From contig JADYZW010000035.1 of assembly GCA_020852955.1 (NCBI GenBank), positions 26,024-90,023 on the forward strand: 64,000 bases of DNA, read 5' to 3'. Under the pieces are notes generated by a model. It worked only from the letters and a program-made list of their open reading frames with translations. It made no database searches and was not told the origin of the DNA. The translations under genes and the position numbers were made by a program. The stretch comes from Deltaproteobacteria bacterium. Its GTDB lineage: Bacteria > Desulfobacterota > Binatia > UTPRO1. How positions within the stretch are numbered: position 1 is the first letter of the stretch; each line of letters starts with the position of its first letter. Positions 24,573 to 35,150 of this stretch are shown one piece after another.

Positions 24573-26243
24573 TCAGGCGACGACCTGCTTCGCCGCCCCC
24601 TCCTCCCGCCCGAGCGCGCGCGCCAGGTTCTCCAGCAGCTCGTCGATCGTGGCCCCGTCGGTCGAATAAGCGGCGGTCGCGGCGCGGAAGCCTACGAGCG
24701 TCCGTCCGACGCCCCGGCCGCGCCCCGCGAGCCAGTCCTGCAGGCGGGCCGCGAGCGCCGCGACGTCGTCCGCGCTCGCGCCGAGCGCCACGACCGCGAT
24801 CTCGGTCGCGTGCAGCCAGCAGAGGATCTCCTGTCCGGCGAGGACCTCCGGGAAGTCCTGCGGCGTGAGGGCGACCGGACCGGCCGCGATCACCTCGCCA
24901 TTCGCCTCGAACCCGAAGCGGGCGACGAGGAGCGCGCAGCGTTCGGTCGCCTTCAATGCGGCGGCGACGCAGTCCCGCAGGAACAGCGCGAACGGATCCC
25001 GCAGGCGGAGCGCTCCGCCGGCCGTGGCCACGAGCCCGGTGACCTCGTCCTCGGCGCTCGCCATCTCGACCGCGATGTGGCGGCGCAGCTCCTCGAGCTC
25101 ATCGTATACGTGCGGCGCCGCCTCGGGGTCGACGGTCACGAGCCCGGTGCCGAACGCGATGCGAAACGGTCGGCCTTCCGTCGGCGCCGTCACGCCGTGC
25201 ATGCGCTCGAGCTTGAGCGTGCCCGTCTGCCGGCCGTTCGTCTCCGAGCCGAGGATGAGCGTCCCGAACGACGCGCGCTTGAGGTAGGCGTTGGCGAGCT
25301 CCTCCTGCGGCGTCACGGGGTCGTCGGAGAGGACGAGCGTGGTCGCGCCGGTGCGCTCGAGCCCGTCGACGAGATCCGTCATGAGGGGCGCCGACAGCAC
25401 CAGCCGCGGCGCCGAGCAGAGGATGGTCAGGACCGAGTTGATGACGATGCGCGTCGCCCGGCACTCGGCAGCGTAGCTCGCGATCTCGGCGGCGAGCGCG
25501 ACGACGTCGTTGCGCGTCTCGAGCGCGTACTCGAAGCGCTCGGCGAGCCCCACGACCACGAGCTTCCCCGACCGTATGTGCGGCCGGAGATCGAGACCGA
25601 CGCTGCTGCCGACGTAGAGCACCGTGTCGACCCGCTCGGTCGTCACGAGCACCGCGCCGTCGCCGCGCTCGAGCGCGCGGTGCAGGAACTGGACGGCGAA
25701 GACCCCCTTCGCCCCGCCGCCCGCGCCCTGCCCGAGATAGACGCGGCCGCGGCAGAGACCGCCGACCTGCTCGTCGAGCGGCGCGATGCCGGTCGGCTCG
25801 AAGTCGAGCGGTCGCGGACCCTCGGCGGTCGGCGCCGCCCGCGGCGTGACGGCCCGGACGCGACGGAGCTCGGCATAGCGGCGCAGGGTGCCGCTCACGG
25901 TCGCGAGGAGCTGCTTCGCCGTGAACGGCTTCACGAGATAGTGCTCGACGCCGAGCCGATTGCCGCGCTCGAGGCTGGTCGCATCGCCGAGCGCCGACAG
26001 GAAGATGACCGGCACCGCGAGGAGCCGCGGATCCTCGCGCATGCGCTCCAGCAGGCGGTAGCCGTCGACCTCGGGCATCATGATGTCCGACACGACGAGG
26101 TCCGGGACGACGCTCTGCAGCTCCGCGAGCGCGCTGACGCCGGAATCGGCGGCGCTCACCTGGTAGCCCTCGCGCTCGAGAATGCGCGAGGCGAGGAGCC
26201 TCACCTCATCGGAATCGTCGACGACCAGGATGTGGGGACGCAT
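24573..26243 (-). CDS. response regulator with KaiC/RecA-like (pseudo)ATPase domain and GGDEF-like C-terminal domain
   Basis: REC domain (ILVVDDSDEV...VVSDIMMPEVDG...LVKPF). A KaiC-like domain follows whose Walker A is GQGAGGGAKG, lacking the Ser/Thr after Lys. The C-terminal region contains a degenerate RFGFEANGE, compared with the canonical RYGGEEF. It lies 9 nt upstream of the exporter gene. Confidence 0.75.
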   Translation of the reverse strand: MRPHILVVDDSDEVRLLASRILEREGYQVSAADSGVSALAELQSVVPDLVVSDIMMPEVDGYRLLERMREDPRLLAVPVIFLSALGDATSLERGNRLGVEHYLVKPFTAKQLLATVSGTLRRYAELRRVRAVTPRAAPTAEGPRPLDFEPTGIAPLDEQVGGLCRGRVYLGQGAGGGAKGVFAVQFLHRALERGDGAVLVTTERVDTVLYVGSSVGLDLRPHIRSGKLVVVGLAERFEYALETRNDVVALAAEIASYAAECRATRIVINSVLTILCSAPRLVLSAPLMTDLVDGLERTGATTLVLSDDPVTPQEELANAYLKRASFGTLILGSETNGRQTGTLKLERMHGVTAPTEGRPFRIAFGTGLVTVDPEAAPHVYDELEELRRHIAVEMASAEDEVTGLVATAGGALRLRDPFALFLRDCVAAALKATERCALLVARFGFEANGEVIAAGPVALTPQDFPEVLAGQEILCWLHATEIAVVALGASADDVAALAARLQDWLAGRGRGVGRTLVGFRAATAAYSTDGATIDELLENLARALGREEGAAKQVVA

Positions 26244-30382: not shown

Positions 30383-33300
30383 CTACTTGCAGGCCAGCTT
30401 CGAGGCCCCGGCCGTACACGACGGCACCGACGGCGGGACGAGGAAGCGCACCTCGCCGCACTGATCGGTCCCCGGCATGGCCCCCGGCGGATTGCCGGTA
30501 TCGTTGAGCTCGATGGCCACCGTGATCGGCGACTCGCCCGGCGCGAGCGGATAGCTGCCCCGATCGCCGGTGATCGCGAACGTGACGAGGCCCGGCACCT
30601 TCGCCGACTTGTCCGTCACCACCACCTTCTTGATACCGTTCTGGGACGGCGGCGTCGAAGCCTTGTCCTGGTAGGTGAACTTGCTCGGCGGCGAGCCGGA
30701 TACCTTCCAGCCGACGGGATCCGCCGCGCTATAGATCCCGGCGGGCACGTGTTGGTCAACGACCACGGCTCCGGTCGGCCCGAGCACGCGCAGGTGGATG
30801 CCGCGCGCCTGCGGCGCGATCGGCGAGCCCCCGTTCGGGACGGTGATGGCGCCCGAGATCTTCAGCTTCTGGACCCCCGGCGCCTCGCCGAGCTTGGCGA
30901 ACACCACCTTCGGCTTGATCCAGTCGCCGGCCGTGCCGGGACGCGAGCACGGGTCGCCGGTGCCGATCGCGGGCGGGCGCGCGACCGCGCCGATGCAGTA
31001 GCCGTCGTCGTCGCTGTCGTTGTCGACGTCGGCGGGGCACCGATCCTGCGCCGTGCAAACCCCGTCGCCGTCGGGATCGACGAGCCGGCAGAGCGTCGTG
31101 CAGCACTCGTCGGCCCCGTTGGCGGCGCCGTTGTCGCACTCCTCCCCGCTGTTCTGGACGCCGTTGCCGCAGGCCTCGAGCCGGCAGAGCTGGTCGCAGC
31201 CGTCGCCCGGAACGGTGCCGCCGTCGTCGCACTGCTCGCCCGGATCACGGAAGCCGTCGCCGCAGGTCGCCGGAGCCTCGCGCGTCGAGGGCACGCACAG
31301 CAGCGTCGCCTTCTGCGCCTGCAGGGTCTCGTCCGCGAACTCGTTCGACGCCTGCAACAGGCGCTTCACGAAGGGCCCCTGCCCCGACGCCTGCCGGATC
31401 TTGTAGCAGTGGATCTGCGCGGCGGGGCTGATCGCCGGCACCCCGTCGACGTCGGTCGTGTTGCAGACGCTCTCGGGCTCCAGCACCGTCGCGAGCTTCT
31501 CCTCGAAGACGTCCTGCAGGTGCGCGCTCACCGCGGCGAACTTCGGCGCGCCGGAGGGCGTCTTCGCCGTGTAGCACTTGAAGCGGTCGAGGTTGGGCGC
31601 CGCGGGCGCGCCGGCGTTCCCGGCCGGCACGCAGAGGCGCTTCGCCTTCTTCAGGGTGAGATCCTGACCGCTGCCGAACTCGTTGTCGATCGTCTCGGTG
31701 CTCGACGCGAAGCGCGCCTGCCCGGGAGCGTCCTTGATCTGGTAGCACTGGAGGTGGGCGTTCGGGTCCTGGATGCCCTGCCCGTCCTTGTCGACCGCGT
31801 TACAGAACTCGCTCGTCTTGATGACCCGCGTGCTCTTGGTCTCGACGCCGTCGGCGAGCGTGACGCTGCGTTCGACGAAGGCGGTCGAGCCGGAGGCCTT
31901 CGCGGCCTTGTAGCACTTGTAGTGATCCACGACCGCCGCGGCGGGCGTAGACGTCGCGGTCGGCGTGACGGTCGCGGTCGCGGTGACCGTCGCGGTGCGG
32001 GTCGGCGTGGGCGTGCGGGTGGCGGTCGCGGTGGCGAGCGGCGTCGCCGTCGCCGCCGTGCTCGTCGGCAGGACGGGTGTCGCCGTCCGCGTGCCGAGCG
32101 GAGTCGCCGTGCGGCTCGGGGTCGGCGTCCGCGTCGCGGTCAGCGTCGGCGTCGCCGTGACCGTCGGACACAGGAACTGCGAGCAGGTGGCGTTGCAGCA
32201 CGCGCCGTCGGCGGCCGCGCCCTTGTCGCACATCTCCCCGACCTGGCGGACGCCGTCGCCGCAGACGGGGCAGTTCGGAAACGGACCGCTCGCGACGGGG
32301 TTGTCGATGCGCGCGGGATTGAAGACGACCCCGCCGCCGATCACCGGGTTCACGCCGGGGAGATGGCTGGTCGTGATCGTGCCGCCCGGCGGGGCGACGT
32401 ACTGCGAGCCGCCCCCGAGCTGCATGGCCCGGCGCGAGACGAGCTCCACGTCGGACCCGCCCGGCAGGTTCGTGATCGGGTTCACGCCGCCGGTGCCGTC
32501 GATCTTCACGTTCGACGCGACGCTCACGCCGCAGCCGATGAGCGAGATGCTCTGCCCGCTGCCATGGCCGGTCCCGCTGGTAGCGACGATGTTCTTCTGC
32601 AGCGACAGGATGCCGCTCCCGCCCTCGTCGCTCGCGAGGCCGGCCTCGAGGTCGACGAAGCCGCCTTCGCCGTCGGCGCTCGTGCCGCGCGTCGTGACCA
32701 CGCCGTTCACCGTCGCCGCGCGGCCCGCCGCCATGAGCACGTCGCCGCCGCTGTCCGTGCCGCTGTTGTCGAGCGCCCCCGTGAAGATCAGGTCGCGACC
32801 GGCGCTGAGGTCGAAGCTGCCGCCATCGCCCCCGATGGCGCCGCTGTTCATCGAGATCACGCCGCCGATCTCGAGGTCGCCGTCGAGCGCGCCGAGCACG
32901 TTCGGGTTGAGGTCGCCGCTGTCCATGGTGACCGCGCCGCCGGAGCCGTCGAAGTTGGTCGCCGCGTCGACCCGGACGACCATGCCGGCGCCGAAGAAGC
33001 GGATCCGACCGGCGGCGAGAACGTCGAGCTCCCCGCCGTCGCCGCCGAACGTGTCGGTCGCGCTGCCGCGCATCAGCAGCGACGCGCCGTTCACGTCGAT
33101 GCCACCGCCGAGGACGCTGCCGCCGAGGAAGTCCTCGCCGGCGTCGAGGGAGATGTAGCCGCCGAAGCCGCCGCCGACCGTACTGTCGGCGTAGATGCCC
33201 CCATTCACGATCGAGATGGCGTCGCCCACGGTGGCGCTGAACTCGCCGCCGTCGCCGCCGCCGCCGTTCACGTTGATCGGCCGGGTGATGGTCAGATTCC

Positions 33301-33982
33301 CGCCCGCCGTGAAGTCGCAGACGCCGCCGGTCCCGGCGTTCTGGCCGGAGAGGTTGATGTCGCCGCCGATCGTGATGCTCCCGTCCTGGGCGACGACGTC
33401 GAGCTCGCCGCCGTCGGTGAAGCGGTCCCCGAGATCCGCGAAGCTGCTCATGCCGGGCCCGTCGATCACCGCACCGGGCTGCAGCACGACGTCCTCGGCC
33501 GCCACCAGGCGGATGGTGCCGGCCGAGTCGCCGGCCACGTCGATGTTGCCGTCGATGTCGATGGTGCCGGTGCTGGCAAGCGACACGACGCCGCCGCCGA
33601 TGATGAATCCGTTCGGCTTCACGAAATCGCCCCGCGCCTTCAGCTTGCCGGTCGACGTGATCGTGATGTCGCCCGCGTTGATCACCCGGATGAAGCCGAG
33701 CCCCGTCATCTGGAAGGTCTTCTCGATGCTGAGGGCGCGCCCGCCGAGATCGAACTCGCACCCGCCAGCCGTGACCTCGATCGCCGTGGTCATGCGGACC
33801 AGCGTCGCGGAGCACACCCCCGTTCCGCAGAGCACGTTCGTCGTGTTGGCGAGGGCGTCGACCCCGCAGGTCCGGGCGACCGCGGACGCGCGGGTCGGCG
33901 CGGCGAGGATCGCGGCCGCGACGGCGGCGAGCAGCAACAGCGCGGGACGCCCGGACGACCGGGGCTCGTGGTTGGGATTCAC
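30383..33982 (-). CDS. giant secreted/cell-surface protein (Gly-rich beta-helix repeats, Myxococcus Cys-rich repeats, tandem KCY domains)
   Basis: Predicted signal peptide ([27 protein letters not shown]), with a GTG start chosen at VNPNHE. There are about 600 aa of GGxGGDGG-type repeats, a [18 protein letters not shown] Cys-rich repeat, a PT-rich linker, and two roughly 105-aa repeats (DHYKCYK..., DRFKCYT..., ...HCYKIRQ). Further CGDGF...EQCDDGG / CGNGV...EECDNG repeats and a C-terminal domain follow. Confidence 0.7.
31935..32170 (-). repeat. coding Pro/Thr-rich low-complexity repeat (TPT/TRT units)
   Basis: Encodes [22 protein letters not shown]...[26 protein letters not shown] on the minus strand. 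It is the same family as 18538..18874. Confidence 0.7.
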
Positions 33983-34145: not shown

Positions 34146-35150
34146 GTGGAGAGCGCACCGAAGCCAGACTTTCGCATCGTGTTCCGGGCTGCCAGCCTTC
34201 TGAACTCGTCCCTCGACCTCGACGTCGTCCTGCGCGAGCTCCTGGACGGCCTCGACCGCCTCCTGCGCCCGACCCATTGGTCGCTGCTGCTCCGCGACGA
34301 CGCGACGGGCGAGCTCGTGTTCACGCTCGTCCGTGGCGACGCCCACCCGCAGCTCCTCGCACGCCGCCTCGCACCGGAGGAGGGCATCGCGGGCTGGGTC
34401 GCGAGCCACGACGAAGCGCTCCTGATCCCCGACGTCGCCGCCGACCCGCGCTTCTCCGCCCGCATGGACACGCTCTCGGGCTTCCGCACCCGCTCCGTCG
34501 TGGCAGTGCCGCTCAGGGCGCGGGCCCGCTGCATCGGCGTCCTCGAGATCGTGAACGCCATGCACGAGCGGGTCTTCGACGCCACCGACCTCGAGATCCT
34601 GCAGAGCTACGCCGACTTCGCCGCCATCGCCATCCACAATGCCCGCACCCACGAGGCGATCGTGGAGCTCGCCAAGAACGATCCGCTGACGGGCCTGCGA
34701 AACTCCCAGTACTTCATTCGCGCCATCGAGGAAGCCATCGCGCGCGGCGGGCGCTTCGCGATCGTGTTCTTCGACATGGACCGCTTCAAGCGGCTCGTCG
34801 ACACGCACGGCCACGTGCGGGGCAGCGCCGCCCTCGCGGAGGTCGGCCGCTGGCTCGGCGCCGAGCTCGCGCCCGGCGAGGTCGGCTGCCGCTTCGGCGG
34901 TGACGAGTTCGCGCTCCTCTTCGCCGGTGCCGACCGCGCCGCGGCCGACACCCGCTGCCGGGATCTCGCGACCCGACTCCTCGCCCGCACGTTCCTCGAC
35001 GACGAAGGCATCCACGCGACGCTTGGCGCCTCCTTCGGCGCGGCGGCGTTCCCGGCCGACGGCGGCACGCCAGCTGCGCTCCTCCATCTCGCCGACGAGC
35101 GCATGTACGCGTCGAAGCGCGCGCGGCAGCTGGCGCGGCGCGCCGACTGA
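34146..35150 (+). CDS. GAF-domain diguanylate cyclase (GGDEF)
   Basis: N-terminal GAF domain, then a GGDEF domain with an intact RFGGDEF active-site motif and an upstream I-site-like RxxD. The track ORF begins with GTG, so the start is uncertain. Confidence 0.8.

Follow-up and report, generated by a model that had tools for sequence, protein, structure and literature searches.

The window analysed in this work is a stretch of 64,000 nucleotides (positions 26,024 to 90,023, forward strand, of contig JADYZW010000035.1, assembly GCA_020852955.1) from a bacterium labelled Deltaproteobacteria bacterium, assigned to Binatia in the GTDB lineage. A complete coding sequence, stop codon included, occupies positions 30383-33982 of its minus strand, and encodes a mosaic protein of 1199 amino acids (aa) which, judging by its sequence, looks secreted and exported by the Sec pathway. 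The protein hosts at aa 684-904 (31271-31933, minus strand) a tandem pair of units of ~108 aa, marked by KCY motifs, which is the subject of this report. In an early reading of the same DNA, hereafter the original prediction, the repeat had been described as an unrecognised domain with four cysteines, and regarded as a possible new disulfide-stabilised binding module of myxobacterial surface proteins. The sequence evidence leaves very little doubt that the repeat is a member of the Pfam family DUF7450 (PF24247), organised in four half-repeats.

The gene and its DUF7450 repeat

The reading frame 30383-33982 is coding. An untranslated frame, an eventuality kept in mind in the original prediction, is ruled out by the GC content at the three codon positions (0.64/0.55/0.95, even along the gene), by a Shine-Dalgarno-like (SD-like) site upstream of the start codon, by the match to a Pfam family described below, and by the existence of a full-length ortholog (P0023), which is 54% identical to the window protein and alike in architecture. 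The open reading frame (ORF), as listed by the program, extends upstream to position 34585. The GTG at 33982 is regarded as the start because the SD-like sequence GGAAGGAG lies 8 nt 5' of it, a divergent GAF-GGDEF gene begins at 34146, the alignment with P0023 starts at residue 7, and an identical protein of 1199 aa has been deposited at NCBI (MCC6848868.1, 'MAG: hypothetical protein IT294_10240 [Deltaproteobacteria bacterium]'). The N-terminus of the protein (aa 1-34, 33881-33982, minus strand) is signal-peptide-like. Read by eye according to the -3/-1 rule for signal-peptide cleavage sites, it features a basic n-region, a core and the residues ASA, followed by VARTCG. N-termini are similarly signal-like in 137 of the 170 family members which could be tested, and the notion that the protein is secreted, already put forward in the original prediction, is supported.

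The curated gathering threshold of PF24247, catalogued in Pfam as 'Repeat of unknown function', is 27 bits. The whole window protein scores 37.6 bits against this profile (E 2.4e-9), the segment aa 684-906 42.8 bits (E 6e-11), and the best stretch, aa 743-898, spans profile positions 1-151 of 151. Higher scores were obtained for the ortholog P0023 (76.2 bits) and for the family consensus (115.7 bits). NCBIfam contains no model that describes the repeat, and the repeat region scanned alone correspondingly gave no NCBIfam match, and DUF7450 as the only match in Pfam. The positions of the cysteines, and the motifs h-x-C-Y, D-Q-F or N-Q-F-G, and L-C-V-P, fall in register with the Pfam profile. In the consensus, the motif reads h-x-C-Y-x-h ... 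V-x-L-x-D-Q-F ... V-x-x-P-x-x-L-C-x-P-x-x-K. Agreement with the 37 columns of highest conservation extends to 28 and 24 of them in the two window units, for a family mean of 30 with a standard deviation of 3.7, and on this basis the window copy is a moderately divergent member of DUF7450.

The size of the family was explored by searching exhaustively with a profile built from the two units of the window protein and from seven units of relatives found in a first round. The number of matched cluster representatives (50% identity) is 5694 with an E-value cut-off of 1e-3, 3973 with 1e-10 and 977 with 1e-30. All the 79 relatives from this search that were scanned matched PF24247, the best at E 1.1e-76, and in a second profile search nearly all of the 120 matches listed have PF24247 precomputed. 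Names attached to these 120 proteins are only 'hypothetical protein' or 'cysteine-rich repeat protein'. The precomputed Pfam field of the window protein is empty, yet DUF7450 is found above threshold by direct hmmscan, and divergent members of the family are accordingly under-annotated.

DUF7450 repeats are not confined to myxobacteria. The family consensus was compared to one genome per GTDB species, and 39 loci were identified, all in metagenome-assembled genomes (MAGs); since the scan requires exact consensus peptides, the 39 loci are a sample, not a census. Candidatus Binatia is the commonest label, and is accompanied by Deltaproteobacteria, Myxococcales/Polyangiaceae, Gemmatimonadetes, Rokubacteria, Bryobacterales/Acidobacteriota, Thermodesulfobacteriota, Gammaproteobacteria, Actinomycetota, and by one Thermoplasmata archaeon. 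The window itself comes from a MAG labelled Deltaproteobacteria. Because MAG labels extend over several phyla, and those relatives of the N-terminal domain of the window protein that have an organism name come from MAGs labelled Deltaproteobacteria or Binatia, the closest ones being Candidatus Binatia, the term myxobacterial is too narrow. A few loci deserve mention. The DUF7450 pair of the archaeal MAG (locus L039, 5001-5687) resides on a 64-kb contig, and either mis-binning or transfer into an archaeon is possible. At a different locus (L047, 5539-9959) two neighbouring DUF7450 genes, encoding 243 and 372 aa, are found directly downstream of a gene for a MopE-type putative copper-binding protein. 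Several loci may be found in the same MAG, as in Glo_18, in which four contigs were hit.

The data bear on the hypothesis that the repeat defines an unrecognised four-Cys family specific to myxobacterial surface proteins. In line with this hypothesis, NCBIfam has no model for the repeat, the protein is annotated at NCBI as hypothetical, its precomputed Pfam field is empty, and no paper was found in the literature for either 'DUF7450' or 'PF24247'. Scores above the gathering threshold of PF24247, the occurrence in several phyla, always in MAGs, and the existence of units devoid of cysteines (60 of 408, see below) make the hypothesis hardly tenable. A confident match to an existing Pfam or DUF family had been named in the original prediction itself as grounds for refutation, and PF24247 provides such a match. 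The domain is catalogued and uncharacterised, hence not new.

Anatomy and predicted fold of the tandem pair

Two units were recognised by hidden Markov models (HMMs) of the family at aa 684-792 and 797-904 of the window protein, separated by a gap of 4 aa, and the same HMMs detected no further copies in the rest of the protein or of the 64-kb window. The units are 37% identical over 103 aa (BLASTP E 2e-21). The two-copy repeat of the original prediction is therefore real, and the motifs quoted there, IHCYKIR, NEF and LCVP among them, are all present. The repeat had been described, in turn, as made of units of ~105 aa, but a shorter period emerges from the analysis. An HMM of the half-repeat identifies exactly four copies, all on the minus strand: A1 (aa 685-739, 31766-31930, 65.9 bits), B1 (aa 740-791, 31610-31765, 53.6 bits), A2 (aa 797-848, 31439-31594, 50.9 bits) and B2 (aa 853-901, 31280-31426, 46.7 bits). 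When profiles of the A-halves and of the B-halves of the whole family are aligned, they prove to be homologous (hhalign probability 99.2%, E 1.3e-19). In terms of sequence, the basic period is ~52-56 aa, each unit of ~108 aa is an internal duplication, and the repeat has a greater regularity than first described. The duplication explains why a partial third copy had been reported: IHCYKIRQ (aa 857-864), the stretch in question, is part of B2, and hence of unit 2, whose end at aa 904 is directly followed by Cys-rich repeats of a different type.

Units are predominantly found in even numbers. Among 249 family proteins, 232 carry 2 (172 proteins), 4 (49), 6 (9), 8 (1) or 10 (1) units, and the remaining ones carry 1 (4 proteins), 3 (11) or 5 (2). 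In proteins with multiple pairs, insertions longer than 100 aa are found between pairs only, as illustrated by inter-unit gaps of 7/360/7, 8/199/4 or 5/123/6/122/6 aa. In comparisons across proteins, 145 of 163 first units have another first unit as their nearest relative, and 144 of 163 second units another second unit. As far as sequences tell, the evolutionary module is the tandem pair of four half-repeats, and the same pair is the structural module predicted by modelling. The Pfam profile differs in this respect, since its 151 positions correspond to three half-repeats (B+A+B), whereas four make up the inherited and predicted module. The limits of the Pfam model are therefore shifted relative to those of the structural unit. 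A single unit of protein P0006 maps to PF24247 positions 50-151. The boundaries of a construct suggested by the analysis are those of the tandem pair (~215 aa), and neither those of the 151-position Pfam model nor those of a 105-aa unit.

The cysteines of the window repeat form four pairs, the members of which are 37-38 residues apart (690/727, 746/784, 803/840 and 859/896). Patterns observed in 408 family units are CCCC (277 units), no cysteine (60), CC-- (33), --CC (20) and other combinations (18). The corresponding odds ratios are 853 for C1-C2, 1082 for C3-C4, and ~20 for the cross pairs. In a mean-field direct coupling analysis (DCA) of 627 distinct units (Neff 525), C1-C2 and C3-C4 are the top two couplings, with scores of 8.9 and 8.6. 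Since cysteines are kept or lost pairwise in each half-repeat, the formation of one disulfide within each half-repeat is supported. We infer from these patterns that C690-C727 in A1, C746-C784 in B1, C803-C840 in A2 and C859-C896 in B2 are disulfides in the window protein. The early description of the repeat as disulfide-stabilised fits the pairwise retention and loss, and the disulfide map of the pair can now be tested.

The couplings that follow in rank involve His4/Lys47/Gln81 and the pseudo-symmetric set His58/Lys101/Gln27. Of 631 units, 548 retain the complete triad H4/K47/Q81 and 37 have none of its three residues, whereas independent losses would have produced 0.5 such units. Where residues are replaced, R, V and E are found most often, and these are the residues of window unit 2. 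The R of this rare R-V-E triad resides in A2, and most polar clasp triads of the window copy are altered. Based on residue covariation, the triads are taken to be structural contacts, subject to compensatory change, which link the halves of a unit; a ligand site is the less likely reading.

The pair was modelled with high confidence by AlphaFold2. Values were pLDDT 80.9 and pTM 0.67 for a single unit modelled from 9 sequences, and pLDDT 96.5 and pTM 0.92 for the tandem pair modelled from 56 sequences, which is predicted to be all beta. Strand topology was derived from the list of DCA couplings and the DSSP string of the pair model. This suggests that in each half a short first strand is paired antiparallel, at the disulfide, with the final portion of the last strand, which is long and kinked by Pro, and that a beta2/beta3 hairpin is present in each half; the end of the long strand of the A-half would adjoin the first strand of the B-half. 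When the pair model was compared by Foldseek to 350,542 PDB chains, none of 312 matches had E<=0.001, the best one having E 0.12 and TM 0.17. Searches of PDB with the single unit were no better, and BFVD also provided no significant match. Sequence and profile searches of PDB, carried out with the protein and two profiles, yielded one match at chance level (E 1.6). The statement that the module has no solved neighbour is accordingly a statement about Foldseek and HMMER searches. The value of the data is at the family level. DUF7450 is large, found in metagenomes and MAGs only, unstudied, and endowed with a confident model that has no structural neighbour. With a structure and the outcome of a ligand screen, thousands of proteins now called hypothetical, from phyla about which little is known, could be annotated.

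The organisation of the pair is reminiscent of that of beta-gamma-crystallins, among which Protein S of Myxococcus, which are similarly extracellular, and build units from pairs of motifs and modules from pairs of units. By analogy, DUF7450 could be a self-assembling or Ca2+-binding module of a matrix or coat at the cell surface, its D-K-N-G-E-G loops serving to bind the ion. Such a role would suit the many small stand-alone secreted members of the family, the conservation of loops rich in Asp, Asn and Gly (NPVDKNGEGI), and the presence of an Asp-rich stretch close to the repeat in the window protein. Other data make it improbable. Crystallin motifs are roughly 40 aa long, whereas the DUF7450 motif is ~52 aa, and carries a disulfide in each copy. 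No crystallin match was found in Pfam at E<=1 (E<=10 for the family consensus), where hits were limited to DUF7450 and, outside of the units, to near-threshold DUF4215. No crystallin, or other Ca-binding fold, occurs among the 50 best Foldseek PDB matches listed, and none of the 312 is significant. Loops are moreover degenerate in the window protein (DKDGQG and DVDGVP), and the coupling of the DKNG Lys with His and Gln assigns this residue to the structural triad. The same coupling makes an EF-hand-like Ca2+ loop in D-K-N-G-E-G unlikely. The DUF7450 pair is not a member of the beta-gamma-crystallins.

Placement of the module and its possible role

The domains which accompany DUF7450 and could be recognised are extracellular, and include both enzymes and adhesin-type modules. 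The list comprises the Cys-rich repeats DUF4215 and Dicty_CTDC, DUF11, Big_1, VWA, disintegrin, lactonase, Laminin_G_3, BNR, Peptidase_S8, SRCR, MopE, PQQ propellers, and an esterase (in P0006). In 203 of 249 family proteins, at most 40 aa follow the last unit. The array coincides with nearly the whole protein in 95 of 249 (leader <=70 aa, tail <=40 aa), is located only near the N-terminus in 32, and is internal in 14, the window protein included. Because partners are extracellular, the module is placed at the C-terminus of diverse passengers, and stand-alone forms exist, the DUF7450 pair is tentatively proposed to be a non-catalytic module devoted to binding or anchoring, with chances that we rate as somewhat short of even. 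When family membership, anatomy and role are considered together, the reading as a whole is evenly balanced between right and wrong. As for the binding module evoked in the original prediction, domain architectures make it plausible.

In this reading, the region 31271-31933 (minus strand) encodes one DUF7450 module within a mosaic protein that is presumably exported by Sec. The pair consists of two ~108-aa units, each derived from the ancient duplication of a beta motif of ~52 aa, in the order A1, B1, A2, B2. One disulfide would pin each motif, by tying its first strand to the end of the long last strand, and two pseudo-symmetric polar triads, made of His/Lys/Gln, or Arg/Val/Glu in window unit 2, would clasp the motifs of a unit to each other. 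The four motifs are predicted to build together one compact all-beta body. The module shows no catalytic signature, and may act outside of the cell by stably binding, or anchoring, its passengers to some component of the envelope, the matrix or the substrate. In the window protein, the Gly-rich domain at the N-terminus and the domain at the C-terminus are the putative passengers. A parallel is provided by carbohydrate-binding modules and ricin-B-type lectin repeats, as they similarly occupy terminal positions in diverse secreted proteins, are repeated all-beta structures with disulfides, and exist in stand-alone forms. DUF7450 differs from them, as no match to carbohydrate-binding modules or lectins was found in Pfam, in PDB by Foldseek, or in BFVD.

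Several observations weigh against a binding or anchoring role. The window module is internal and followed by 295 aa, an arrangement shared by a minority (14 of 249) of the family. Genomic neighbourhoods provide no functional clue, whether those of the window gene, of three stand-alone family genes, the neighbours of which are unrelated, or of 43 loci, in which an all-against-all comparison of neighbouring ORFs revealed no family recurring in more than 5. The polar residues that are best conserved act as internal clasps (H-K-Q replaced by R-V-E), and do not outline an obvious ligand site. Disulfides are missing from 60 of 408 units, and are thus dispensable for the fold. Foldseek and profile searches of PDB found no likeness, in structure or sequence, to any known binding module, and no experiment is on record for any member of the family.

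Some of these observations are accounted for by a different hypothesis, according to which DUF7450 is a passive spacer or stalk, a rigid bead braced by disulfides, devoid of a ligand of its own, which would keep functional domains at a distance from the cell, and would be comparable to the Ig, FN3 or PKD domains of bacterial surface proteins. Tandem arrays of up to 6-10 units would be expected from a stalk, and the location of the window module between a Thr/Pro-rich linker and Cys-rich repeats is what one would predict for a spacer. The conserved polar residues, whose role seems to be structural and not to bind a ligand, and the absence of a conserved genomic partner point in the same direction. 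A pure spacer, in turn, does not explain the 95 of 249 proteins in which the array is nearly all there is. In most multidomain members the pair comes at the very end of the protein, where nothing is left to be connected. Copy numbers are variable in Ig-like spacer arrays, and the even number of units found in 232 of 249 proteins sets DUF7450 apart from them. A spacer function is on balance unlikely, though it deserves serious consideration.

Terminal placement on very diverse passengers, observed in 203 of 249 proteins, could also hint at a C-terminal secretion or sorting domain, read by an export or attachment machinery in the way the T9SS C-terminal domain is, the more so since a subfamily features a conserved tail of ~16 aa after the last unit. 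We regard this hypothesis as quite improbable. Near the N-terminus, the module is found in 32 proteins; a further 14, among which the window protein with 295 aa after it, carry it internally, and up to 10 units may be present per protein. No gene for a co-occurring machinery was detected in the 43 neighbourhoods, and the family is spread over phyla for which no common dedicated sorting system is known. Moreover, the window protein, the ortholog and the family consensus gave no match to NCBIfam models of sorting signals (T9SS CTD, PEP-CTERM, MYXO-CTERM type). A C-terminal domain akin to an outer-membrane beta-barrel, or to those of autotransporters, was also taken into account, and is judged improbable in view of the hydrophilic sequence, the conserved disulfides, and the occurrence of internal, N-terminal and multi-copy modules.

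The proposal of a binding or anchoring module can be framed in a wider scenario, in which the pair, a beta module of four motifs, pseudo-symmetric and pinned by disulfides, is a fold with no solved representative, and could constitute a novel class of modules that bind or anchor outside of the cell, used by uncultured bacteria of soil and sediment (Binatota, Myxococcota-like, Gemmatimonadota, Methylomirabilota, Acidobacteriota) to put enzymes and adhesins in place. In that case, the window protein would be an adhesin of the cell surface, in which the module, unusually placed inside the protein, accompanies a second, uncatalogued domain, the Gly-rich one at the N-terminus. The scenario as a whole is rather doubtful.

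The ends of DUF7450 proteins are in some groups distinctive. A tail of ~16 aa, ASPSGAFL[DE]xxxxxLLD, is conserved right after the last unit in 27 of 249 proteins (P0124, P0151 and P0067 are examples), and a different group features an acidic end, LGP...EEDDEE. Both ASPSGAFL-type and acidic tails could be sorting or processing signals.

Other regions of the protein and neighbouring genes

The window gene is monocistronic. It is divergent from the GAF-GGDEF gene, and convergent with an ORF of 757 aa, which may encode a molybdopterin oxidoreductase, judging by eye from its N-terminal Cys motif.

Upstream of the repeat, the signal-peptide-like segment is followed by a large Gly-rich region (aa 35-570, 32273-33880, minus strand). 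The region had been described as Gly-rich and beta-helix-like. The first attribute holds, Gly accounting for 21% of the residues; the second finds no support in the sequence, where periodicity is weak, and no Pfam or NCBIfam family was matched at E<=10. The region has 54 homologs, 31-74% identical and often aligned over the full length, 52 of which carry no precomputed Pfam domain. Many of these are proteins of ~550-620 aa, which contain little beyond the region itself. Homologs from named organisms, 60-62% identical, belong to MAGs labelled Deltaproteobacteria or Candidatus Binatia.

The Gly-rich region is separated from the DUF7450 pair by a Cys-rich repeat (aa 571-605, 32168-32272, minus strand) and by a low-complexity linker rich in Thr, Pro and Ala (aa 606-683, 31934-32167, minus strand), where GC content at the second codon position rises up to 0.80. 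By eye, the pattern of the Cys-rich repeat is the same as that of the TIGR02232/DUF4215 repeats found downstream of the pair. The downstream repeats, two in number, are acidic and Cys-rich (~aa 905-966, 31085-31270, minus strand). They are of the TIGR02232 (myxo_disulf_rpt) type, and resemble DUF4215. TIGR02232 scores 48.3 bits in the window protein, the cut-off being 20.8, over two stretches, the best of which is aa 906-936; the Myxococcus Cys-rich repeats reported in the original prediction are thus confirmed. Scores for DUF4215 (23.6-25.7 bits) are slightly under the cut-off of 27. TIGR02232 and DUF4215 repeats share with DUF7450 the presence of cysteines, the extracellular location and the lack of a known function, co-occur with it in the window protein, and are its commonest recognised partners. 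They differ in being acidic and much shorter (~38-47 aa), and neither was detected within the KCY units, the best stretches lying outside of aa 684-904.

Next comes an Asp-rich stretch (~aa 967-996, 30995-31084, minus strand), which looks like thrombospondin type-3 repeats by eye only, since the window protein has no match to TSP_3 at E<=10. The protein ends with a region of ~200 aa (aa 997-1199, 30386-30994, minus strand), for which no match was found in Pfam, and no family could be assigned. Judging from these scans, the uncatalogued parts of the protein are the 536 aa of the Gly-rich N-terminal region and the ~200 aa of the C-terminal region, and not the KCY repeat on which attention had been focused. 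The C-terminal region is conserved in the ortholog P0023, and its tail contains Cys.

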